In this document: in pieces, positions 1 to 11,796 of the stretch | Numbering within the stretch: position 1 is the stretch's first letter | Layout of the letters: every line of letters starts with the position of its first letter | From: Sulfurimonadaceae bacterium | GTDB taxonomy: Bacteria; Campylobacterota; Campylobacteria; Campylobacterales; Sulfurimonadaceae | Length of the DNA stretch: 11,796 bases | Reading direction: 5' to 3' | NCBI GenBank assembly: GCA_041562555.1 | Contig: JBFEXS010000069.1 | Location: forward strand, 1-11,796 | Program-made: the position numbers and the translations under genes | Notes under the pieces: generated by a model | What the model saw: only the letters and a program-made list of their open reading frames with translations | Told to the model about the DNA's origin: nothing | The model's database searches: none

Positions 1-566
1 ACTACCCGAGTGTTGAGCTGGAGAAGCTGCAGGAACGTCTACAGGAGTATTACCTTATCAATGCTTCGATCTTTCAAAGTCTTCCTGATTACTGGGGGCT
101 TGGACAACGTTTTCCGATTATGCCTATTCACAAACTGGACACCCCTGCTCTGCGCTCAGCATCGCTGTGGGATATCACTTGTGACAGTGACGGGGAGATA
201 GGGTTTTCATCCAATTCACCTCTGTATCTGCATGATATAGACCTTGATGAGGAAGATTACTTCCTTGGTTTTTTCAATGTCGGTGCTTACCAGGAGACCT
301 TGGGAATGGAGCATAATCTTTTCTCTCACCCGAGTGAGTGTACTGTCATCATCGATGAACATGGATATACGCTGGAGCAGATCGATGAGTCGGATTCTTT
401 ATTGAAGGTCGTTTCCAATCTTGGATATGATGAGAATCAAATCTTAATCCAACTAAAAAATTCTTTAGCACGTTCTACTTTTATCACAGAAGAAGAAAAA
501 AGTGATACACTTCAAAAGTTAGAACTCTATTTGTATCAAAATAGTTATCTAAGAACTACTAACTAG
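1..566 (+). CDS. speA: Biosynthetic arginine decarboxylase, 3' part (5'-truncated by the window)
   Basis: The frame of the 120..566 ORF is open from position 3 (YPSVELEKLQERLQEYYLINASIFQSLPDYWGLGQRFPIMP...), so ATG 120 is internal. SpeA motifs FQSLPDxW, WDITCDSDG and VGAYQE..HNLF are present. Stop TAG at 564-566. Confidence 0.95.
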   Translation, partial: YPSVELEKLQERLQEYYLINASIFQSLPDYWGLGQRFPIMPIHKLDTPALRSASLWDITCDSDGEIGFSSNSPLYLHDIDLDEEDYFLGFFNVGAYQETLGMEHNLFSHPSECTVIIDEHGYTLEQIDESDSLLKVVSNLGYDENQILIQLKNSLARSTFITEEEKSDTLQKLELYLYQNSYLRTTN

Positions 567-574
567 GAAAACTA

Positions 575-1276
575 TTGGGAATTTTTTCACAAATCAAAGA
601 AGATTTTACAAACGTTTATAACAATGACCCGGCGATTCACTCAAGAATAGAGTTGTTTTTCAATTATCCGGGGGTATGGGCTATCGCCAACCATCGCATA
701 GCCAACAGACTCTACAAGGCAAATTGGAAACGATTGGCACGTGTCATCATGGGTATCAATCAGATCATCACAAACATTGATATCCACCCTGCCGCCACTA
801 TCGGATCACGCGTATTTATCGACCATGGGACCGGTGTGGTCATCGGTGAGACGACGGTTATCGAAGATGATGTACTGATCTATCAAGGAGTCACCCTTGG
901 CGGGGTCAACCTTGTTGCAGGGAAACGTCACCCCACGATCAAAAGAGGTGCCGTTATCGGTGCCGGAGCAAAGGTACTTGGGAATATCACCATCGGTGAA
1001 AACTCTAAGGTCGGCGCCAATTCCGTCGTCGTCAAAGAGGTCCCTCCCCGTTCTACCGCTATCGGTATTCCAGCGCGTGTTGTAGACAAAGGACGGTGCC
1101 AAGATCCCTTTTCACACAACAAACTCCCGGATGTCAACAAGGAGATCTTTGAGTATTTGCTTAAACGTGTGGCTGTCTTGGAGCATGTCATGGTACAGGA
1201 CAACAAAGAGATTCTCGAACAAGACCTTGAACTTGAGCATATCTACGAGTCATTCATCAAGTCGATGAAATCTTAA
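575..1276 (+). CDS. cysE: Serine O-acetyltransferase (hexapeptide-repeat acyltransferase)
   Basis: Motifs DPA, YPG..A...HR, DIHPAATIG, FIDHGTGVVIGET, QGVTLGG and KRHPT. TTG start with AGGAAA SD (565-570) overlapping the speA stop. Confidence 0.96.
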   Translation: MGIFSQIKEDFTNVYNNDPAIHSRIELFFNYPGVWAIANHRIANRLYKANWKRLARVIMGINQIITNIDIHPAATIGSRVFIDHGTGVVIGETTVIEDDVLIYQGVTLGGVNLVAGKRHPTIKRGAVIGAGAKVLGNITIGENSKVGANSVVVKEVPPRSTAIGIPARVVDKGRCQDPFSHNKLPDVNKEIFEYLLKRVAVLEHVMVQDNKEILEQDLELEHIYESFIKSMKS

Positions 1277-1332
1277 GTGGCTTAGGCTGCGAACACTTCT
1301 TCTTATACGCAAGATAAATTCAACAAAAAACT

Positions 1333-1341
1333 TGTTATAAT
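1333..1341 (+). promoter_or_regulatory. Putative sigma70 extended -10 (TGtTATAAT) for the aminotransferase gene
   Basis: Exact TGnTATAAT about 60 nt upstream of ATG 1404. AAAGG SD at 1393-1397. Confidence 0.7.
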
Positions 1342-1403
1342 CTCACTACTAATAATGGTGTCTTTTCCATAGCGCCATATAAGCTTTATTTCAAAGGTTA
1401 CAC

Positions 1404-2570
1404 ATGCTATCAGATAGAATCAATATTCTTTCCGAGTCAATTACTATCGCAGTCACTACGTTAGCGCAAGAACTACGTGCTGCAGGAAAAGATGTCCTGA
1501 GCTTTTCAGCAGGAGAGCCTGACTTTGACACACCGCAGGTTATCAAAGATTCTGCGATCAATGCGATCAATGAAGGATTCACCAAGTATACTGCGGTTGA
1601 TGGCATTCCCGATCTTAAAGCCGCAGTCGCTGAAAAGTTAAAACGTGACAACAACCTTGAATATGCAGCCAACCAGATCATTGTAAGCAATGGCGCAAAA
1701 CACTCTTTATTCAACCTCTTTCAAGCGACCATAGGTGAAGGCGATGAAGTGATCATTCCTGCACCATACTGGGTGACTTACCCTGAATTGGTTAAGTACA
1801 GTGGAGGCACCGTTGTAGAGATAGTTACAGATGATACAAGCGGGTTTAAAATTACACCGGAACAGTTAAAAGCAGCAATCACTCCCAAGTCAAAGATGCT
1901 GATCCTTACTACCCCGTCAAACCCGACAGGTTCTGTTTACTCAAAAGAGGAACTCACAGCATTGGCAGATGTACTCAAAGGAACAGACATCCTTGTCGCA
2001 AGTGACGAAATGTATGAAAAACTTGTTTACGACGGTGAGTTCACATCCGCTGCGTCTATCAGTGAAGACATGTACAACCGTACCATCACGATCAACGGAC
2101 TGAGTAAATCTGTTGCCATGACAGGATGGCGTTTTGGTTACCTTGCTGCAAAAGACCCTGAATTGATCAAGGCGATGAAAAAGCTTCAAAGCCAGAGTAC
2201 ATCCAATATCTGTTCCATTACACAAAAAGCAGCCATTACAGGTCTTAACGGATCTGCGGACAAGGATATCGAGATGATGTGTCAGGCATTCTCCGCACGC
2301 AGGGATGAAGCGGTTGAACTTTTCAACAAGATCGACGGAGTTTCTGTTGTCAAACCGGATGGCGCCTTTTATCTTTTCGTGAACATTTCTCAAGTCGAGA
2401 AAGACTCACTGAAGTTTTCAAAATCACTGCTAGAAGAGACCGGCGTCGCTGTTGTTCCTGGCGTAGGTTTTGGATCAGACGGATATTTCAGGTTCTCGTT
2501 CGCTACGGATATCGAGAGTATTCGCGAAGGTATCAAACGTATAGAGACCTTTATCAATAACAACTACTAA
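1404..2570 (+). CDS. aspB: PLP-dependent class I/II aminotransferase, aspartate aminotransferase (AspB/AspC type)
   Basis: Motifs GEPDF, NGAKHSL, PSNPTG, DEMY and the PLP-lysine motif NGLSKSVAMTGWRFGY, plus PDGAFY and RFSFA. The speA-cysE-aspB order matches what I recall for Campylobacter. Confidence 0.9.
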   Translation: MLSDRINILSESITIAVTTLAQELRAAGKDVLSFSAGEPDFDTPQVIKDSAINAINEGFTKYTAVDGIPDLKAAVAEKLKRDNNLEYAANQIIVSNGAKHSLFNLFQATIGEGDEVIIPAPYWVTYPELVKYSGGTVVEIVTDDTSGFKITPEQLKAAITPKSKMLILTTPSNPTGSVYSKEELTALADVLKGTDILVASDEMYEKLVYDGEFTSAASISEDMYNRTITINGLSKSVAMTGWRFGYLAAKDPELIKAMKKLQSQSTSNICSITQKAAITGLNGSADKDIEMMCQAFSARRDEAVELFNKIDGVSVVKPDGAFYLFVNISQVEKDSLKFSKSLLEETGVAVVPGVGFGSDGYFRFSFATDIESIREGIKRIETFINNNY

Positions 2571-2577
2571 ACCTATT

Positions 2578-2603
2578 AGAGCACATCTTTCTCAGCGTGC
2601 TCT
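2578..2603 (+). terminator. Stem-loop right after aspB (possible terminator or 3' stabilising hairpin)
   Basis: Perfect 7-bp inverted repeat AGAGCAC-N12-GTGCTCT, 7 nt after the stop. There is no U-tract, so it is not a canonical terminator. Confidence 0.4.
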
Positions 2604-2656
2604 GTACCCCAAGCTTTATTAGCCCTTACAAACCCTGTCTTAATTTACAATATATA

Positions 2657-2680
2657 TTATTATATAGTTTATTATATAGT
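2657..2680. repeat. Perfect 12-bp tandem direct repeat (TTATTATATAGT x2)
   Basis: 2657-2668 and 2669-2680 are identical and lie in AT-rich intergenic DNA. Confidence 0.85.
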
Positions 2681-2730
2681 GAAATACATTTCCTCTGAAA
2701 GCTCCTGATGTTGCTCTTTGATATACTTTT

Positions 2731-2739
2731 TGATATAAT
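2731..2739 (+). promoter_or_regulatory. Putative extended -10 (TGaTATAAT) for the 101-aa ORF
   Basis: Exact TGnTATAAT 34 nt upstream of ATG 2774. A second TATAAT lies at 2743-2748. Confidence 0.6.
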
Positions 2740-2773
2740 ACTTATAATATAGATTAATCGATTAGAGTGCATC

Positions 2774-3079
2774 ATGAAATTAGAAAGCCAAAGTTTTTTA
2801 TATGACACAGCTTACAAGTATGAACAGGCGGATATCAAGACTTCCAAGGCTGCCGTAAACTCAAGAAACTTTTCAGATGTTAATAAAATAGATGATATTT
2901 CAGACCAGAATGTCGTCAGTGCCTATTTTGATCTCTTTGATGAAAGCTTCTCTGAACTCACAATCAAGAATCTCTTGAATCAACGGTTACAGCCCGCCTA
3001 TCTTCTCCCAAAAGTGCACAATACTGATCTTCTTGCCGCCAAGGCAAATGAGTTGTTAAACTTCTCTGTTGCTATTTAA
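2774..3079 (+). CDS. Hypothetical protein (101 aa)
   Basis: Free-standing ATG ORF filling the gap between two operons, with an upstream extended -10 and a protein-like composition. The SD is weak (AGAG). Confidence 0.7.
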   Translation: MKLESQSFLYDTAYKYEQADIKTSKAAVNSRNFSDVNKIDDISDQNVVSAYFDLFDESFSELTIKNLLNQRLQPAYLLPKVHNTDLLAAKANELLNFSVAI

Positions 3080-3135
3080 ACAAACACTGCTTATGCACAC
3101 AACCCCATATTTAATATAGAAGTAAATATTTCATG

Positions 3136-3164
3136 AAAAGTCCAAGTCCCAAGAAGGGACAGGA
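3136..3164 (-). terminator. Rho-independent terminator of the minus-strand ilv-lpxD run
   Basis: Minus strand reads TCC-T-GTCCC-TTCTT-GGGAC-TT-GGA followed by CTTTT, 16 nt past the stop at 3181. Confidence 0.65.
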
Positions 3165-3180
3165 TATTAAAAAATGCGGC

Positions 3181-3387
3181 CTATGATTTTAATGCTTGCA
3201 AGGCTGCAATGACATCATCAAGATTCGTCATAGGAAGGTGAACCTTCCACTCCGGGTTTTCTGCATCACCGGAAAGGGAGATACCTACACTGGCAACGGT
3301 TCCGCTGCCTTTGCCATAAGGTTCTTCAAGTTTGGTTACCGAGATAACCCCGTTTTTCGTACCGTCTAATGCAATTGTTTGACTCAT
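3181..3387 (-). CDS. Small hypothetical protein (68 aa)
   Basis: Strong SD (AAAGGA) before the ATG, 36 nt downstream of lpxD and followed by a terminator. Beta-strand-like segments followed by a C-terminal amphipathic helix. Confidence 0.85.
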   Translation of the reverse strand: MSQTIALDGTKNGVISVTKLEEPYGKGSGTVASVGISLSGDAENPEWKVHLPMTNLDDVIAALQALKS

Positions 3388-3423
3388 CTTCTTTCCTTTA
3401 ATATATGAGCACGCAAATGCCCA

Positions 3424-4380
3424 TCATTTGGTTTTCAATAGTCTAGCCAATTTTGCTTGAAGTTTCAACCATGCGCGTTGTTCCATCAATGGGAAACCAC
3501 CGTAGACCTTGGAACCGTCCGTCACATCATTGGTTACACCTGAACGTGCTGCAAACTGAGTGAATGGCGCGATAGTCAAATGTCCGGCCGTAGCACTTTG
3601 TCCACCCATAACGACATTACGACCCAACTTGGTGGAGCCGGCTATACCGCATTGTGCCACAAGGATAGTATACTCGCCGATATCGACATTGTGTCCAAAC
3701 TGCACAAGATTGTCGATCTTACACCCTTTACGGATATAGGTCGATCCAAATACAGCCCTGTCAATGGCACAGTTGGCACCGATCTCAACATCATCTTCGA
3801 TGACAACATTCCCGTTTTGATAGATCTTGACATGCTCACCCAGTTTTGTATGTGCAAACCCAAAACCGTCAGAGCCAACGGTCGTTCCCGAGTGAATGAT
3901 ACAATCCGAGCCTACTTCACAATCTCTGTACACTGAGACATTTGGGTGCAATATCGTATTGTCACCGATTCTGGCATTATCACCCACGAAGACGCCCGGC
4001 AAGAGTTTGACGTTCTTACCGATAACACTCCCCTTGCCCACGTATGCCGTAGGTGCGATAAAGCTGCCCTCGCCGATTTCAGGGTCCGTCCCCTCAGTCT
4101 CAATAACATTGGGAGCAAACAACTTAGAAGCAAGGGCAAGTTTCAGGTAAGGCTCTTCATCTATCAAAGCGATACACCCTTTTGGCACCTTCTGTGAAGC
4201 AGCTGCATTACACAAGACAGCCGCCGCTTTTGTCTCTTCAAGAGAGTTGATATACTTCGGATTATCCAAAAAACTCATTTGAGTCGATGTTGCATCACTA
4301 AGTGTATGAATACCTGTGATCTCCAGGTCTTCCCCACTAAACTCTACGCCAATTGCTTTTGCGATATGCGAGAGCTTCAC
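3424..4380 (-). CDS. lpxD: UDP-3-O-(3-hydroxymyristoyl)glucosamine N-acyltransferase
   Basis: N-terminal SFLDNPKY uridine-binding segment, hexapeptide repeats, GSDGFGFA, IDRA and KIDNLVQFGHNV (catalytic His). The GTG start overlaps the upstream TAG by 1 nt. Confidence 0.96.
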   Translation of the reverse strand: MKLSHIAKAIGVEFSGEDLEITGIHTLSDATSTQMSFLDNPKYINSLEETKAAAVLCNAAASQKVPKGCIALIDEEPYLKLALASKLFAPNVIETEGTDPEIGEGSFIAPTAYVGKGSVIGKNVKLLPGVFVGDNARIGDNTILHPNVSVYRDCEVGSDCIIHSGTTVGSDGFGFAHTKLGEHVKIYQNGNVVIEDDVEIGANCAIDRAVFGSTYIRKGCKIDNLVQFGHNVDIGEYTILVAQCGIAGSTKLGRNVVMGGQSATAGHLTIAPFTQFAARSGVTNDVTDGSKVYGGFPLMEQRAWLKLQAKLARLLKTK

Positions 4381-4850
4381 TACATCTCCATCGCAACGAC
4401 ACCGCTGCGAACGATCTCTTTAGGGTGAAAGCGTTTGATGGCACGTAAGAAGTTATCTACCCTGTGCGGTTCATCTGCAACGTTGGCGATGATAACATCC
4501 TCACTTACATTCACGATCTGTCCGTTATACGCCCCACACAATGCAGCAATATCGCTTAAACACTCGGATACAGGGAACTTGACAAGGGCCATCTCTTTTT
4601 CAACAAGATACTCATGTTCATATACCTTAAGCACCGGGATAAGCTTATGAAGCTGTTTGATGATCTGTTCGATCACACGGATCGAACCCTCTGTAACGAT
4701 CGTGATACGAGAGTACTTTGACTCCGGGATCGGAGCAACTGTTAAGGAATCAATATTGTATCCACGACCTGAAAAAAGACCGACAATACGGGAAAGTACC
4801 GAAGCCTCATTCATTACGATTACTGAAATTACGCGTCTCTCTTGCGCCAT
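4380..4850 (-). CDS. ilvN: Acetolactate synthase small regulatory subunit (IlvN/IlvH)
   Basis: ACT domain (VLSRIVGLFSGRGYNIDSLTV), EQIIKQLHKLIPVLKV and EIVRSGVVAM. TAATG overlap with the large subunit; AAGGA SD. Confidence 0.96.
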   Translation of the reverse strand: MAQERRVISVIVMNEASVLSRIVGLFSGRGYNIDSLTVAPIPESKYSRITIVTEGSIRVIEQIIKQLHKLIPVLKVYEHEYLVEKEMALVKFPVSECLSDIAALCGAYNGQIVNVSEDVIIANVADEPHRVDNFLRAIKRFHPKEIVRSGVVAMEM

Positions 4851-6544
4851 TATTTGTCCTTATACTCTAACATCATATTAAATAGTGAACCGCCCGCTGG
4901 AACCATTGGAAGTACATTCTCTAAACGGTTGACCGTTACATCGATCAGAGCAACCACGTTTTTCTCAACAGCATCTTTGATCGCTGCATCGAACTCTTCT
5001 TTCGTCTTGACACGGTAACCTACCCCACCAAAACTCTGTGCAAGCATGACAAAATCAGGTTGCATGGTAAGGTCAGTCGATGAGTGACGCTTGTCGTAGA
5101 ACATTGTCTGCCACTGACGTACCATACCAAGATAGTTGTTGTTCAAGATGACATTGATGACCGGAAGTTTGTACTCAACCGATGTCATCAACTCCTGGAT
5201 GTTCATCAGGATGGAACCGTCTCCCGTGACGTTGATACTTACCTTATCAGGGCACCCGCGTTTAACACCAAGTGCTGCAGGGAATCCGAATCCCATCGTT
5301 CCAAGACCACCTGAGGTGATCCATTGACGTGCACGGGAAAACGGATAAAACTGTGCTGTCCACATCTGATGCTGTCCAACATCCGTAGTGATATTTGCAT
5401 CATCACCAAGCAATTCACCCAAACGTTCAATAGCCCATTGCGGTTTGATGACTTCATCACTGTCTTCATACGCCAGAGGGTGCAGTTTGTCAAAGTTGGC
5501 TACTGTTTCGCGCCAACCCGCATAACGTGTTCCGTCAATTTTCTCTTTAGCCAATGGAATCATCTCTTCGATAACATTTTTGACATCTCCGACAATAGGG
5601 AAATCTGCCGGGACAAGTTTCGAAACACTCGCAGGGTCGATATCAATATGAATTACTTTGGCATGCTTGGCAAACTCTGAGAGCTTACCGGTAACGCGGT
5701 CATCAAAACGTGCACCGACGGCGATCATCAAATCCGCTTCAGACATTGACATGTTTGCCGCATACGAACCGTGCATGCCCAGCATAGAGATCAGGTTTTC
5801 ATTGTCAGCCCCCAGGACTCCTCTTGCCATCAGCGTCTCCACTGCAGGTATATTCGTCATATTGACCAACTCACGCACCTGCTCTGATGCATTCGAATTA
5901 ACGACACCACCACCTAGGTAGAAGATAGGGCGAGATGCCTCGGCAATAGCCTCAACCGCTTTTTTGATCTGGCGGGAGTTCCCTTTTACCGTAGGTTTAT
6001 ACGTCTCCATATCGACGCCATCCGGATAGACAAACTCCTCGATCTGCGCTGTGACATCCTTAGGGATATCGACATGGACAGGGCCTGGACGCCCGGTAGA
6101 TGCCACATAAAATGCTTCTTTCATAATACGTGGAAGATCTTTGGCATCTGTTACAAGATAATTATGTTTTGTACATGGACGGGAGATTCCCACCGCATCG
6201 ATTTCCTGGAAAGCATCCGTCCCGATAAGGGACATCGGCACCTGTCCAGAGATGACGACCATAGGGATTGAGTCCATATACGCATCTGCCAGACCTGTGA
6301 CAGCATTGGTAAATCCAGGACCGGAGGTAATCATCGCCACACCGACTTTTCCTGTCGCTTTTGAATATCCCTCTGCCGCGTGAATCGCCGCTTGCTCATG
6401 ACGAGCCAAAACGTGTTGAAAACCTTGTTGTTTATAAATTTCATCATAGACATTCATGATCGCTCCGCCTGGATAGCCAAAAACTACCTCGACATTTTCT
6501 GCGATCAAAGATTCTATAACCATTTGAGCACCGCTAATCTGCAT
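4850..6544 (-). CDS. ilvB: Acetolactate synthase large catalytic subunit (IlvB/IlvI), 564 aa
   Basis: Motifs FGYPGGA, RHEQ, TSGPG, RFDDRVTG, DVGQHQMW, SGGLGTMG and the ThDP motif GDGS..NN. Start placed at ATG 6544 (MQISGAQ), which has a GGAGAG SD, rather than at 6556. Confidence 0.96.
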   Translation of the reverse strand: MQISGAQMVIESLIAENVEVVFGYPGGAIMNVYDEIYKQQGFQHVLARHEQAAIHAAEGYSKATGKVGVAMITSGPGFTNAVTGLADAYMDSIPMVVISGQVPMSLIGTDAFQEIDAVGISRPCTKHNYLVTDAKDLPRIMKEAFYVASTGRPGPVHVDIPKDVTAQIEEFVYPDGVDMETYKPTVKGNSRQIKKAVEAIAEASRPIFYLGGGVVNSNASEQVRELVNMTNIPAVETLMARGVLGADNENLISMLGMHGSYAANMSMSEADLMIAVGARFDDRVTGKLSEFAKHAKVIHIDIDPASVSKLVPADFPIVGDVKNVIEEMIPLAKEKIDGTRYAGWRETVANFDKLHPLAYEDSDEVIKPQWAIERLGELLGDDANITTDVGQHQMWTAQFYPFSRARQWITSGGLGTMGFGFPAALGVKRGCPDKVSINVTGDGSILMNIQELMTSVEYKLPVINVILNNNYLGMVRQWQTMFYDKRHSSTDLTMQPDFVMLAQSFGGVGYRVKTKEEFDAAIKDAVEKNVVALIDVTVNRLENVLPMVPAGGSLFNMMLEYKDK

Positions 6545-6573
6545 GTGTCTCTCCATATTTAAAAATTCTTTGT

Positions 6574-6579
6574 ATTATA
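6574..6579 (-). promoter_or_regulatory. Putative -10 box (TATAAT) for ilvB-ilvN-lpxD
   Basis: Exact TATAAT about 30 nt upstream of the start, preceded by a T-tract. Confidence 0.6.
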
Positions 6580-6627
6580 GTAAAAAAATCTATGATAGAG
6601 GTTAAACATGAGCCTGAGGTCTTGATT

Positions 6628-7539
6628 CTAAGAAAGTTCAGGCCCTTGTTCACATGCAGTTATCGCCAATCCTTCACGCAGCCCGTCATCGATGATAACC
6701 GACGTCTCATAATCAAAGAGCCTAAAAAACTGTGCGTAGATCATGACACCTGCGAGGATCAACTCCTCACGCCCGACACCTACGTAGGAAGCTCTTTCAT
6801 CAAAATCAAGAGAAAGAAGATCATCCAAAGCTTCCATGCATTCAAAACAGTTCAGCGTTGAACCATTGATACGTTCAGCCTCATAATCATCATATTTCAT
6901 TCCCTGTCTAAAAGCACTTATTGTCGTTGGTGTACCTGCCGTCGCCACGAAAAAATCCGGTTTACCCTCGCGCGTATAATAGTTGTGAACATATTCACTT
7001 ATCTCAGAAAGTTCTGAAACAAGATGTCGATTCATCTCATCCCGTGAAGGATACTTCGATGCCATCGTCACGATACCGACGGGAAAACTCTTTGACTCAC
7101 TCACGTATCCTTTTTTAAAGATAACTTCCGTTGAACCGCCTCCGATATCAACCAACACAAAGGACCCTCGAAATCCAAGATCTTCCAACCGTCGTTCCAC
7201 TGCCAATAGTGTCAACTGAGCCTCTTTATGGGCTGAGATGATCTTGAACTCTACCCCCGTCTTCTCATGTATTCTTTTCAAAACACTCTCAGCATTGCTA
7301 GCACGACGCATCGCTTCCGTCGTCACTGCCACACATGTATGCGTATCAAAATCCAAATACTGCGATGCCTCTTTAAAACCTTGGAGTATCCGTTCCTCGG
7401 CAGCATCAGATATGATGCCCTGCGAATGTAACAGTTCTGCTGTTTTGACTATCTTTTCATATTCGGCAACAAACACTTTACCCGCACAATCCCTTTGAAT
7501 CATCCGAAGGGAATTCGAACCCAAATCAATAGCAATCAT
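6628..7539 (-). CDS. ppx: Ppx/GppA family phosphatase (short form, no C-terminal HD domain)
   Basis: ASKHA motifs IDLGSNS, TEAMRRA, EAQL, DIGGGSTE and DDGLREG; 303 aa. GGAG SD lies inside the end of the upstream gene. Confidence 0.9.
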   Translation of the reverse strand: MIAIDLGSNSLRMIQRDCAGKVFVAEYEKIVKTAELLHSQGIISDAAEERILQGFKEASQYLDFDTHTCVAVTTEAMRRASNAESVLKRIHEKTGVEFKIISAHKEAQLTLLAVERRLEDLGFRGSFVLVDIGGGSTEVIFKKGYVSESKSFPVGIVTMASKYPSRDEMNRHLVSELSEISEYVHNYYTREGKPDFFVATAGTPTTISAFRQGMKYDDYEAERINGSTLNCFECMEALDDLLSLDFDERASYVGVGREELILAGVMIYAQFFRLFDYETSVIIDDGLREGLAITACEQGPELS

Positions 7540-9660
7540 CTACATCTCCACAATGTCATTTATTATCATACTCGGTCTGAACAAAGTGATATCTCCATTC
7601 TGCATAGCAGACAGATGTAATACACCACCACGCTTACCTTCATACTTTTCCAGGAAGTTTTCCACATGCTCATCCAGACCAAACAGGCGGATATACTTTT
7701 CCAGTCCTCGTGCTATCAACACCTCTGACTTACCGGTACGCAGGGCTATGCCAAGCTGAGACATATATGCCTGCTGCATGACAATAGCCACAGACACATA
7801 TTTTGATTTGATCTCAAAAAAGTCTTTCAAACTCGAGACTACTCCCGACACATCTCCCCTTGAAGCAAACTTCTCGGCCAAAAGCAGATGCGCATACCAA
7901 TTCCCCTCTATCTCTTTGGCTTCTTTTCGCTCCATTAGATAGGGGTTCTTCCCAATCATTTCATACATCTTTGGCACATCATTAAGATGAAAGGCATCAC
8001 TGAAGTCTTGATACACTTTTGAACGTTCCATCATCTCCAGTACATCATCTTTGAAATCAGGAAAGAGCAAAAGTTCAGATGCATATTTCACACAATCAGC
8101 ATAATCCTCGTTTTCCAGGGACTGATGCGCTTTGATATACAGATTGTCCGCATAGGCAATCAGATCATCATATTCATCAAACTCCTTGATAAAGGGACAT
8201 CTTTCAAGCAGTGTGAAGAGAGCCTGGTAATCCTTTTGTGCCAGTTTCTTTTGAAATAGCATATACGCGGTACGCTGCTGAAACAATTCCTGTATCAAAA
8301 TAGATTTTTCAGATATCCCCTTGAAGGATGAAAGCAGTTTCCTGACCCTTTCGTCCCCATCCTTTTTAAGTAAGATGGTTTTAGCTTTGTTAAACTGTAT
8401 GTGCCACTCGTTTTCCATAAATCGATAAGCATCGCTCTTTTTGAAATGGGGGTGTCTGTTCGCCAGGGGATATGCCAGGGAGTATTTTTTCTCGTTCACA
8501 CAACGCACAAAGGTCTCATACTCACGATAATCCTTGAACAGCTCTTGAATAAGAGCTCCCTTTGATCGTACCTTTTCAAAGGGAGCAATGGTGTTCCTCG
8601 CATTCTCTTTTTGACCCATCTCTAAGAGTTTCGTCGCTTTTTTAAGGGTTGATTCCCACACCTGCTCAAGCTTGTTATAGACATAGGAATAGCGTAAAAG
8701 CGGATTCTCTTCTACTAAATCATACAAGACATCATACGCCTTAACTTTAAGCTGCTGTACTAGATAATGCTCTTTGGGGACTAGGGAGTAAAAGTTCAAA
8801 CGCCCGCTTTTGGTGCCGACCACCAATTGATTCTTTTGCTTAAGCACCGTCAGTGCGGTCACTTTTGTCGACTCTTTGACAAAGGAGCGTTTAAGACACT
8901 CCCCACTTTGAATATCATACAGCACTACATTCCCCAACTTGGTTCCCACAAAAAGAAACCTCTCGTCAGCACTGACACAAAAACAGTTCACGTCATCATT
9001 GATCTTTTTAAAACGCGTGATCGCCTTTGACGTACGAAGATCCCATAAAATGACATTTCCCGTCTTGTCCGCAGAGAGCATCTTCATCCCTTTAAGGAGT
9101 TTCATCTGTATGATCACACTCTGATGGCCGCTTAAGCGGATCGGTGTCTGCATCGTCGTAAGGTTAAGCACGGAAATATTTCGGTCATAGGAAGCAGATG
9201 CGATCCAGATACTGTTGATCTCCAAGGCCGTTATGTAATCTGCATGGGGAGGAAAGGAGTATACCAGTTTTGCCGTTTCCAGATTCCAGACATAGGTCTT
9301 CCCGTCCGTACCGCCGGTGACAAAATAGTGATTATCATCGTCCACACAGACAGATTCCAAATCACCCTTATGACGTGAAGTCGTATACAGAAGCTTTCTG
9401 TTGTGTATATCATAGAGTGCTGCTTTATTGCTCTTTGGGATAACACAGGCGGCATACTTTCCCGACGCCGAGACAGACATGTGATTTCCCCAGGAACGTT
9501 CCTGCTCTATCTTGGTCTTAAACCCGTCAATCGTCTTGTAGTTTTGCGCATCAATGTAACGCAGAGTACCCATCTTGTCCATGAGGATCAGATTGCCGTC
9601 ATGAAGTGCCTTGAGCGTAACAACAGGTGATTTGATCTCTACACTTTTATCGGCGATCAT
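7540..9660 (-). CDS. WD40 repeat protein: N-terminal 7-blade beta-propeller plus C-terminal helical repeats (706 aa)
   Basis: WD-type blades such as HKGDLESV..TGGTDGKTYVWN, HADYIT..SASYDRNISVLN and GHQSVI..SADKTGNVILWD. Residues ~304-640 form four ~84-aa helical repeats. Confidence 0.9.
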   Translation of the reverse strand: MIADKSVEIKSPVVTLKALHDGNLILMDKMGTLRYIDAQNYKTIDGFKTKIEQERSWGNHMSVSASGKYAACVIPKSNKAALYDIHNRKLLYTTSRHKGDLESVCVDDDNHYFVTGGTDGKTYVWNLETAKLVYSFPPHADYITALEINSIWIASASYDRNISVLNLTTMQTPIRLSGHQSVIIQMKLLKGMKMLSADKTGNVILWDLRTSKAITRFKKINDDVNCFCVSADERFLFVGTKLGNVVLYDIQSGECLKRSFVKESTKVTALTVLKQKNQLVVGTKSGRLNFYSLVPKEHYLVQQLKVKAYDVLYDLVEENPLLRYSYVYNKLEQVWESTLKKATKLLEMGQKENARNTIAPFEKVRSKGALIQELFKDYREYETFVRCVNEKKYSLAYPLANRHPHFKKSDAYRFMENEWHIQFNKAKTILLKKDGDERVRKLLSSFKGISEKSILIQELFQQRTAYMLFQKKLAQKDYQALFTLLERCPFIKEFDEYDDLIAYADNLYIKAHQSLENEDYADCVKYASELLLFPDFKDDVLEMMERSKVYQDFSDAFHLNDVPKMYEMIGKNPYLMERKEAKEIEGNWYAHLLLAEKFASRGDVSGVVSSLKDFFEIKSKYVSVAIVMQQAYMSQLGIALRTGKSEVLIARGLEKYIRLFGLDEHVENFLEKYEGKRGGVLHLSAMQNGDITLFRPSMIINDIVEM

Positions 9661-9666
9661 CTGGTA

Positions 9667-10878
9667 TTATTTCATCTCGCTACTTAAATATCCGTGTTCT
9701 TGCAATACATGCCTGATCTCTTCTTGGTGTGCTTTACCTTTGGTCTCGAGATGGATAGTGACATGAGCATCCCCGTAATCAAGTGTCGTAGATGTTCTGT
9801 CATAAGCGATATGTACAATATTTGCATACAGCTCTTTGAGCAATTCTGTCAATTTCATCAACGAACCTGGTTTATCCACCAGGGTAACCGTCAGCTTCAT
9901 TTTGCGATGCGACTTGAGCAGACCTTTTTCGATGATAACTGAAAGCATCGTTACATCGATATTCCCACCGCTGAGGATGACACCTATCTTTTTACCGGCG
10001 AAGGCTTCCAGCTTACCATGCAGCAGTGCCGCTACACCGACGGCACCGGCACCTTCAACCACAAGTTTCTGTTTCTCCAGCAGATAGAGGATCGCATTCG
10101 CGATCTCTTCATCATCAACGGAGATGACCTCATCAACACTTTGCAGCATATACTCGAGAGTGATTTCCGAAGTGTCCCTGACCGCAATACCATCGGCGAT
10201 AGTCCGGACCGAACTTGTATGGACGGCACGCTTCTGTTCAAAAGAGTTCTTCAAAGCCGGTGCACCTTTGGCACTTACACCGATAATCTTCACCTTAGGA
10301 TTGATCTGCTTCGCGGCAGAAGCCACACCCGAGATCAGGCCACCCCCACCTACAGGAACCACAATAAGGTCCAGATCAGGCTCTGCTTCAAGCATCTCTA
10401 TAGCTATACTTCCCTGTCCTGCGATGACCTCATCATCCTCAAAAGGGTGTATGAAAACCAGACTGTTCTTTTGGGCATATTCCGTCGCATAGGCATAAGC
10501 CTCATCATAATTGCTTCCGGCCAGTACAACTTCTGCACCCAAAGCACTCACTCCGTTGATCTTTGTGATCGGTGTAGATTCAGGCATCACGATAACGGAT
10601 TGGATATCAAAATGCTTTGCAGCAAAAGCGACCCCCTGGGCATGGTTTCCCGCACTCGCCGCAATCACACCCTTTTGTTGCTGCTCCTGTGAGAGTGAAG
10701 CCACCTTATTAAAGGCTCCACGCAGCTTAAAGGCTCCTGTGATCTGTAGGTTCTCTTTTTTGATGAACACCTGTGCTTCAGCTATTTCACTAAGTTGTGG
10801 TGCAAAGGCAAATGGCGTATTCACCGCGACGTTCTTTATCCGTTCAGCGGCTTTTTTGATCAGTTCTAACTCTAACAA
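9667..10878 (-). CDS. ilvA: Threonine ammonia-lyase (threonine dehydratase) with one C-terminal ACT domain
   Basis: Motifs KKENLQITGAFKLRGA (PLP Lys), SAGNHAQG, PVGGGGL and SGGNID, with ACT-domain DKPGSL. TTG start with AAGGA SD. Confidence 0.95.
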   Translation of the reverse strand: MLELELIKKAAERIKNVAVNTPFAFAPQLSEIAEAQVFIKKENLQITGAFKLRGAFNKVASLSQEQQQKGVIAASAGNHAQGVAFAAKHFDIQSVIVMPESTPITKINGVSALGAEVVLAGSNYDEAYAYATEYAQKNSLVFIHPFEDDEVIAGQGSIAIEMLEAEPDLDLIVVPVGGGGLISGVASAAKQINPKVKIIGVSAKGAPALKNSFEQKRAVHTSSVRTIADGIAVRDTSEITLEYMLQSVDEVISVDDEEIANAILYLLEKQKLVVEGAGAVGVAALLHGKLEAFAGKKIGVILSGGNIDVTMLSVIIEKGLLKSHRKMKLTVTLVDKPGSLMKLTELLKELYANIVHIAYDRTSTTLDYGDAHVTIHLETKGKAHQEEIRHVLQEHGYLSSEMK

Positions 10879-10886
10879 TTCAATCC

Positions 10887-11312
10887 TTATATTCCTGCAT
10901 GCTCAACCATGGTACATTTATTCTGAACGACCTTTATTCCTGCGTCTTCTACAATGCGGGCTGCTTCATTATTGACAATTCCCTGCTGTGCCCAAAAACA
11001 CTTCACATCTCCCCGGGCCAATACGGCTTCAGCTATTAACACCAATGCCTTGGGTTTACGAAAGACATCTACCATATCGATTTCAAAAGGGATCTCAGCC
11101 AATGAACGGTACACCTTCTCCCCCAGGATCTCATCCTCTTTCGGATAGATCGGGACAATCCTGAACCCCTGCCCTTTAAGGTACTTTGCCACCCGGTAAC
11201 TCGCCTTGGAAGGATCAGGGGAAAGTCCCAGAATCGCTATGGTCTTCGTTTTTGAAAAGATCTCTTTGATCTCATCATCTGTACTGTTCACCGTAGGAAA
11301 TTCACACTCCAT
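10887..11312 (-). CDS. CoA-binding protein (YccU-like)
   Basis: TIAILGLS, ASYRVAKYL, GEKVYRSLAEIP, IDMVDVFR, WAQQGI and VVQNKC fit the CoA_binding_2 family. AAGGAG SD. Confidence 0.92.
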   Translation of the reverse strand: MECEFPTVNSTDDEIKEIFSKTKTIAILGLSPDPSKASYRVAKYLKGQGFRIVPIYPKEDEILGEKVYRSLAEIPFEIDMVDVFRKPKALVLIAEAVLARGDVKCFWAQQGIVNNEAARIVEDAGIKVVQNKCTMVEHAGI

Positions 11313-11366
11313 ATGGACTCCTTAAAGACATTCAAACACTTGACCTGCCTTTTTGATAATTTTGGG

Positions 11367-11375
11367 ATTATATCA
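11367..11375 (-). promoter_or_regulatory. Putative extended -10 (TGaTATAAT) for the CoA-binding/ilvA/WD40/ppx operon
   Basis: Exact TGnTATAAT on the minus strand, about 55 nt upstream of ATG 11312. Confidence 0.7.
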
Positions 11376-11448
11376 GACTAAAACAAAGTTACGGATAAAC
11401 ACCCGAGATATCTGTTTGAAATCGATTCAAGTGAATAAGAAAATATTA

Positions 11449-11457
11449 TGATAGAAT
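11449..11457 (+). promoter_or_regulatory. Putative extended -10 (TGaTAGAAT) for the divergent ORF
   Basis: One mismatch to TGnTATAAT, 31 nt upstream of ATG 11489. Confidence 0.55.
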
Positions 11458-11488
11458 AGAACCAGAAAAGTAAAAACTGGAAACATTT

Positions 11489-11796
11489 ATGAATACCTCT
11501 GAGATTGAAAAATTAAAAGCAGAAAACAAGGCATTGCGTAAAGAACTCAATGCCTGTAATGCTTATGTCGACCGTCTTAACATGACTCTGGATGAACAAT
11601 ATGAATGGGTGTGGGAAGTCGATGCAATTACTCAAAATGAGGATTACTTTCATGACAATGCGGGGCAATTGTTCGATTTTGTCAATGCGTTTATGAATGA
11701 CCTGATATTTTGGAAGACCAAGATCTTTTATGAAGGTGCACCAAGTGTCGGTTTTCTCAACGATTCAATTACGACCAATGCCAATATGCTCAATGC
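11489..11796 (+). CDS. 3'-truncated ORF: N-terminal coiled coil followed by a probable PAS domain (signal transduction protein)
   Basis: Absent from the ORF track. I translated 102 open codons: MNTSEIEKLKAENKALRKELNACNAYVDRLNMTLDEQYEWVWEVDAITQNEDYFHDNAGQLFDF...FWKTKIF. GGA SD-like sequence and a promoter lie upstream. Confidence 0.75.
   Translation, partial: MNTSEIEKLKAENKALRKELNACNAYVDRLNMTLDEQYEWVWEVDAITQNEDYFHDNAGQLFDFVNAFMNDLIFWKTKIFYEGAPSVGFLNDSITTNANMLN

Follow-up and report, generated by a model that had tools for sequence, protein, structure and literature searches.

The WD Gene and Its Product

The 11,796-nucleotide stretch of a Sulfurimonadaceae genome analyzed here (assembly GCA_041562555.1, contig JBFEXS010000069.1, positions 1 to 11,796; hereafter, the window) contains a gene, which we call the WD gene, whose product, P0001, consists of an N-terminal WD40 β-propeller and a C-terminal helical domain built from four homologous repeats (table 1). 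The initiator methionine (M1) is kept in at least 90% of 38 homologs. Sequence inspection and Pfam, NCBIfam, and PADLOC scans of P0001 detected neither a hydrophobic or membrane segment nor a catalytic, enzyme, or NTPase domain. An earlier note, made from the nucleotide sequence, had described a seven-bladed propeller followed by about 400 amino acids (aa) of helical sequence with no membrane segment or enzyme/NTPase motif; profile matches, the predicted model, and a comparison of the repeats bear out this architecture, and the Pfam and NCBIfam scans agree with the absence of such motifs. The source assembly is 2.10 Mb in size and 89% complete and carries three copies of the family, including P0001. 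The window is present in three DNA sequencing runs, all from a single marine metagenome study, and no RNA run containing it was found.

The propeller matches the Pfam models PF00400 (56.6 bits, cut-off 27) and ANAPC4_WD40 (41.3 bits, cut-off 22.9). It is closed, has four-stranded blades, and superposes on solved WD40 domains; the AlphaFold2 model of the full-length protein has a predicted local distance difference test (pLDDT) score of 90.9 and a predicted template modeling (pTM) score of 0.81. Outside of its own family, the sequence of the propeller matches the WD40 regions of cyanobacterial NB-ARC and kinase proteins.

Table 1. The WD gene and its parts, neighboring genes in the window, and the two other family copies in the same assembly.
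Feature	Position	Strand	Remarks
WD gene (P0001), whole	7540..9660	-	706 codons plus TAG stop; 81.5 kDa
Seven-bladed WD40 β-propeller	8776..9660	-	aa 1-295
Helical repeat R1	8494..8745	-	aa 306-389; five helices
Helical repeat R2	8239..8493	-	aa 390-474; most conserved unit
Helical repeat R3	7987..8238	-	aa 475-558
Helical repeat R4	7735..7986	-	aa 559-642
C-terminal cap and conserved nonhelical tail	7543..7734	-	two helices, aa 646-677; tail, aa 678-706
CoA_binding_2 protein	10887..11312	-	first gene of conserved string
ilvA, threonine ammonia-lyase	9667..10878	-	upstream neighbor; TIGR01127, 535 bits
Short Ppx/GppA-family protein (ppx)	6628..7539	-	downstream neighbor; 303 aa; PF02541, 120 bits
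ilvB	4850-6556	-	
ilvN	4380-4850	-	
lpxD	3424-4380	-	
Paralog, 705 aa	contig C8 10786-12870 (L013:6784-8898)	+	30% identical to P0001; after pta-ackA and a YchJ/SEC-C protein
Paralog, 726 aa	contig C62 9249-11327 (L014:7250-9427)	+	24% identical to P0001; downstream of pyrG and recJ, two open reading frames between

A Tandem Repeat of 84 Residues

The helices in the C-terminal half of P0001 recur with a period of approximately 84 residues. In profile-profile comparisons, the sub-alignments of residues 306-389, 390-474, 475-558, and 559-642 mutually match at 94-99% probability (E 1e-7 to 7e-18), and the last 64 residues are unrelated to these four units. Each unit opens with a conserved N-P-x-L turn and is composed of five helices of roughly 10, 5, 22, 11, and 25 residues. 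The model of the isolated helical domain has a pLDDT of 90.0 and a pTM of 0.61; residues 691-700 of the tail have pLDDT values of 91-93 in the full-length and isolated-domain models alike.

The helical half is a genuine tandem repeat that existing models do not recognize. None of the Pfam and NCBIfam models matches it, single-sequence searches of PDB and Pfam returned nothing meaningful, and the isolated-domain model has no Foldseek match at E ≤ 0.001. The ESM Atlas gave sub-threshold leads to a cluster of Campylobacterota hypothetical proteins (0.87) and to Verrucomicrobiota and tetratricopeptide repeat (TPR) clusters (0.81-0.83). We describe the domain as a TPR-like repeat of a new, 84-residue type. 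The likeness is local: the last three helices of R3 (aa ~502-560) superpose on approximately 1.5 TPR units with a root-mean-square deviation of 1.5-2.6 Å over 50-59 residues, in matches below the noise level to classical TPR proteins such as NrfG, Sgt2, Tom70, BamD, MamA, and subunits of the anaphase-promoting complex (APC), and one TPR-like PDB profile of the kinesin light chain type weakly matches the R3/R4 junction (E 4.6e-4). These sub-noise local matches and the single weak profile match are the basis of the TPR-like label, and several observations count against it: the unit is 84 aa with five helices and not the 34 residues of a TPR, no global superposition on classical TPR proteins was found, the TPR profiles are silent on P0001, and none of 14 helical domains from the family matches TPR or any other consistent Pfam family at E ≤ 1.

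Extent and Diversification of the Family

We searched 1.84 billion representative sequences, clustered at 50% identity, with a hidden Markov model of the helical domain, which matched 505 representatives at E ≤ 1e-3, 318 of them at E ≤ 1e-30. Among the best 150 of these 505 relatives, none exceeds 726 aa, and 130 have lengths of 540-726 aa with the helical domain mostly starting near residue 300; in the other 20, which are shorter, the match is mostly cut at one end, and these are therefore probably fragments. The lengths and the position at which the domain starts lead us to conclude that the propeller and the helical domain form a fixed fusion without alternative partners. In a minority of members, of about 550-570 aa, R4 and the cap are missing.

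A separate sequence search identified approximately 40 full-length relatives at 30-65% identity from Sulfurimonas, Sulfuricurvum, an Arcobacter metagenome-assembled genome, and Campylobacterota, labeled either "hypothetical" or "WD40 repeat". Twenty cluster look-ups likewise returned no functional name, giving "hypothetical", "WD40 repeat", and one automatic "YncE", and our literature searches on WD40 proteins in Campylobacterota, Helicobacter pullorum/hepaticus, Wolinella, Sulfurimonas, and Arcobacter brought up no publication on a protein of this kind. The earlier note considered P0001 a candidate for novelty that assignment to a characterized family would overturn; no model, name, or paper in the libraries and literature searched covers the family, and what is new is the type of repeat. 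An unnamed family of at least 505 clusters, spanning free-living sulfur oxidizers to enterohepatic Helicobacter, is thereby defined.

In a survey of 301 genomes that are at least 90% complete and were sampled across the phylum, the helical-domain profile is present in 76, all of which belong to the same family or the same order as the genome containing the window. The counts for the individual taxonomic families are 20/23, 34/90, 0/124, 0/12, 6/7, 3/3, 1/15, 0/6, 2/2, 0/1, 4/11, 4/4, 0/1, and 1/1. The family with 34 of 90 genomes includes the enterohepatic species H. pullorum, H. rodentium, H. ganmani, H. apodemus, and H. turcicus. Two or more diverged copies per genome are common, and some are in tandem; the family diversified through duplication inside Campylobacterales, and each group of paralogs has its own gene neighborhood. 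In the family to which the window belongs, tandem full-length pairs, with 50-250 nucleotides (nt) between the two genes, are found at G070:C5 5024-9252, G082:C1 47186-51411, G006:C95 18909-23127, and G097:C12 16280-20558. One or two in-frame stops lie within the match at G138:C1:1013388-1014485, G006:C76:3495-5564, G006:C95:21238-23127, G008:C15:4687-6345, and G046:C138:12946-14598, which suggests pseudogenes or split genes and hence turnover in the family.

We sampled the neighborhoods of 70 loci, recovering 71 family genes from 69 of these; locus L037 also carries a family gene, as determined with tblastn. The phylogeny of the family genes (FastTree) resolves two clades, each with 97% local support, with several long branches flagged. 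P0001 is a member of clade II, in a group of 12 rows from its own taxonomic family. Ten positions are kept in at least 90% of the 71 members: G116 and G120 in a WD turn and eight helical residues in R1-R3 (L322, A354, A396, Y397, E416, K452, Y497, and L530), of which A396, Y397, E416, and K452 are in R2. The least conserved parts are blades 1, 2, and 5-7. Because conservation is concentrated in R1-R3 and the blades vary, we infer that the family's common module is the helical array and that the propeller is a variable, partner-specific one. WD orthologs are 34-61% identical at loci where ilvA is 69-81% and ilvB 79-97% identical, a rapid drift that would be expected for an adaptor and not for a core enzyme.

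Gene Neighborhoods

The neighborhoods of clade I provide the strongest functional hint in the data. In this clade, 11 of the 34 genes lie no more than four genes away from REC-PAS, PAS-only, REC- or PAS-GGDEF-EAL, or histidine kinase genes (L031, L032, L035, L039, L048, L060, L072, L073, L077, L078, and L080); these 11 represent seven taxonomic families. For nine of them, the immediately upstream, same-strand gene is of the REC/PAS cluster, and its end falls between -25 and +18 nt relative to the start of the WD gene. The REC-PAS and PAS proteins encoded at these loci have no output domain, and genes for REC-GGDEF-EAL proteins, dCache histidine kinases, and hybrid kinases are nearby. The outer flanks vary among families; it is the persistence of the REC/PAS-WD pair despite rearranged flanks that makes the hint strong, and the arrangement may represent a conserved signaling module. 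Elsewhere in clade I, eight genes of the Helicobacter family directly follow MinD-MinE plus a divergent gene for a polysaccharide deacetylase; DprA comes directly after seven of the eight, and in four of those seven RuvX is next. A short subfamily of 560-570 aa, also of the Helicobacter family but belonging to clade II, has four members (L036:7066-8772, L061:7733-9439, L064:7399-9102, and L066:7726-9405), all of which follow a gene for a protein of 620-650 aa that weakly matches FapA_N (E 8.8e-5). At L036, a 782-aa protein with DUF7494 and TPR regions is encoded just upstream of the short paralog, with dnaK-grpE on the opposite strand.

Within clade II, groups outside of the window's own neighborhood type are found by polA and mobA-moaC, or after dxs-msrA shortly before the CoA-binding/ilvA genes. 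A pyrG-recJ group faces fliI and includes one other copy from the genome of the window; one group follows fliH-dxs-msrA.

The copy in the window is embedded in a string of biosynthetic genes. The ilvA stop is 6 nt ahead of the ATG of the WD gene, and the WD TAG is immediately followed by the ppx ATG (0-nt gap), with GGAG 9 nt upstream of the latter. The order CoA-binding, ilvA, WD, ppx is found at 10 of the 12 examined loci of taxonomic family f1 (the window and nine of the 11 others), ppx being nonadjacent at two, and both examined loci of family f12 have the same ilvA-WD-ppx order; the junctions, measured at 11 such loci, range from -49 to +29 nt. The Ppx/GppA-family neighbor falls well short of the exopolyphosphatase and GppA cut-offs in NCBIfam (149.6 versus 307 bits), which leaves its substrate uncertain.

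Proposed Function and Alternatives

We favor, with a little better than even confidence, the view that P0001 is a soluble, cytoplasmic, nonenzymatic two-module scaffold or adaptor for protein interactions, from a family with recurrent links to components of phosphorelay and c-di-GMP signaling; the signaling component taken alone is held less firmly than the scaffold/adaptor statement as a whole. The propeller, with its strongly varying blades, would act as the specificity module, and the rigid array of four 84-residue repeats would be a common module for self-association or for binding a shared class of partner. The family may usually serve phosphorelay and second-messenger signaling proteins as an adaptor or as a platform for output; we posit this because the start of clade-I genes is often overlapped by a REC-PAS or PAS gene amid clusters of histidine kinase and REC-GGDEF-EAL genes. 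A working analogy for clade I is provided by RcbAB of Vibrio vulnificus and by the FimV-type polar hub that binds a diguanylate cyclase, in that a nonenzymatic repeat protein is encoded next to c-di-GMP enzymes and acts with them; these TPR scaffolds, which tune c-di-GMP signaling, are compared here by description, and no propeller is mentioned in the available parts of the two sources (PMC12282931, PMC7033161). An output-domain-less REC-PAS gene overlapping a propeller-repeat gene, as seen in seven families, might be the sign of a new route of output in two-component and c-di-GMP signaling in Campylobacterales.

Several observations weigh against this interpretation. The remaining 23 of the 34 clade-I genes have unrelated neighbors (the MinD-MinE-deacetylase/DprA-RuvX genes, ispG, and others), and the 37 rows of the neighbor analysis that represent the clade of the window contain no signaling neighbor, so that a signaling role for P0001 itself is an extrapolation from clade I; an exception in clade II is the C62 copy, which is followed at a distance of approximately 1 kb by an open reading frame for a REC domain; this frame extends past the end of the contig and was therefore skipped by the analysis. 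Strings of genes with mixed functions may be usual in Campylobacterales, which would make neighborhood a weak guide. Partner binding by P0001 is a candidate property for which no interface was predicted. Finally, in genera g7 and g10 of the window's own taxonomic family, the string CoA-binding, ilvA, ppx, ilvB, ilvN, lpxD is present at four of the four loci examined (L099-L102) with nothing between ilvA and ppx; none of the three genomes of these genera in the phylum survey has a helical-domain match, and a second search gave weak matches (E 6e-6 or worse) in four of 20 genomes, which we take to be propeller-only. It follows that ilvA and ppx do not need the WD gene, and an obligatory tie between them is weakened. 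The proposal in the earlier note of an uncharacterized cytoplasmic scaffold in a housekeeping operon is thus retained in part: the family has no model or name, a soluble scaffold is the reading that we favor, and the string is a housekeeping one, but the string is independent of the WD gene.

These same sister genera bear on the possibility that P0001 is a partner of the adjacent enzymes, tethering or controlling the Ppx/GppA-type phosphatase, which would act in the turnover of polyphosphate or (p)ppGpp, or the threonine dehydratase and thereby linking branched-chain synthesis to the stringent response. The very tight junctions with ilvA and ppx and the gene order conserved in f1 and f12 speak for such a role; however, ilvA is directly followed by ppx in the WD-less loci, at two of the 11 other f1 loci ppx is not adjacent to the WD gene, and clade-II copies in other families adjoin polA, mobA, or msrA. 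A complex prediction for P0001 and the Ppx-like neighbor (residues 1-293), made without controls, gave 0.37, 0.00, and 0.00 in its three runs and counts neither for nor against binding. We consider this role quite unlikely. An unlikely alternative, to which we nevertheless give some weight, is a landmark scaffold associated with the cell pole, division, or the flagellum that arranges machinery at the poles or septum of these polarly flagellated bacteria, as the MinD-MinE and DprA-RuvX neighbors in the Helicobacter family, the FapA_N-like and DUF7494/TPR proteins encoded near short paralogs, and the groups beside fliI and fliH would suggest. Flagellar and division genes are, however, scattered among unrelated genes in Campylobacterales, so these adjacencies may be due to chance; moreover, the FapA match is weak, and the copy in the window has no such neighbor. 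That P0001 is a remnant, or else the sensor arm, of a STAND-type or other conflict/defense system seems scarcely credible, although STAND NTPases account for many of the WD40 arrays of bacteria, the matches of its propeller outside of the family are to NB-ARC and kinase proteins, and the family is fast evolving and multicopy. No NTPase or effector domain was found with Pfam or NCBIfam, the best 150 of 505 relatives do not exceed 726 aa, the gene keeps a stable place in the core genome from genus to genus, and the PADLOC match is weak (E 4e-5 to 4e-8), aligning part of the propeller with the N-terminus of a 1972-position model. In contrast to WD40-kinase and STAND fusions such as PkwA of Thermomonospora curvata, the propeller of P0001 is N-terminal and its sole fusion partner is the helical repeat, with no kinase or NTPase.

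The earlier note had also likened the layout of P0001 to that of protocoatomer proteins, in which case the protein would self-assemble on and shape a membrane, as has been proposed for bacterial members of the PVC (Planctomycetes-Verrucomicrobia-Chlamydiae) superphylum. P0001 shares with PVC coat-like proteins (e.g., Gemmata gp4978), clathrin, COPI/II, and scaffold nucleoporins an N-terminal β-propeller and C-terminal stacked helices in one polypeptide, together with the presence of multiple paralogs per genome. This order agrees with the operational definition in PMC2799638 and bioRxiv 10.64898/2026.10.26.761892. According to PMC2799638, the propeller-helix order was restricted to PVC among 175 bacterial proteomes analyzed with 2005-era methods, and proteins having both domain types occur in most proteomes; the 2026 bioRxiv preprint repeats that coat-like proteins are known from reports on Planctomycetota and some relatives, and it cites a 2023 update. 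What supports the coat proposal is the order of the domains, which is a matter of architecture and not of homology. The weak Foldseek list for the helical domain includes chains of intraflagellar transport complex A (IFT-A), nucleoporins, and APC (E 0.15-0.56), but none of the fold searches places a coat, nucleoporin, or clathrin chain above noise, and the Foldseek comparison with coatomer and nucleoporin structures that the note had suggested therefore yields no support for kinship with coats. The 2023 update on prokaryotic coat-like proteins, by Ferrelli et al. (J Struct Biol 215:107987), may list such proteins outside of PVC. Unlike PVC and eukaryotic coats, to which searches that include weak matches reveal no detectable sequence or significant fold relationship, P0001 has a single propeller and approximately 400 aa of helices derived from an 84-aa, five-helix unit; it is also from a different phylum than the PVC proteins. 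The match to eukaryotic WD40-TPR scaffolds of the IFT-A type is local and within noise, and IFT-A subunits carry a pair of propellers and far longer arrays of TPRs. We therefore caution that "propeller plus solenoid" is by itself no evidence for a membrane coat, and we regard a coat-like function as very improbable.

The scaffold/adaptor interpretation that we favor has a bolder extension, which we mention as a long shot. A propeller-solenoid scaffold outside of PVC might self-assemble through its 84-residue repeats into a cytoplasmic lattice or polar matrix, with clade-I members recruited or released by phosphorylated REC-PAS proteins and the propellers holding clients. If true, this would be an independent bacterial invention of a building block of the coat type, connected to two-component and c-di-GMP signaling.

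Other Features of the Window and Related Loci

Scans of the window for tRNA genes and Rfam families gave no matches. Two of the four loci of genera g7 and g10 carry a tandem second lpxD-like gene. Open reading frames of approximately 101-102 aa without a Pfam or NCBIfam match are present at 2774-3079 (+) and 11489-11794 (+), the latter running off the window. The lowest G+C content in the window (0.38-0.40) is found at 2570-3424, between an aminotransferase gene and lpxD. In one genome of family f5, a 495-aa open reading frame for a reverse transcriptase (RVT_1; L026:2683-4167, +) is located a few kilobases from a WD gene and may be part of a group II intron or retron.
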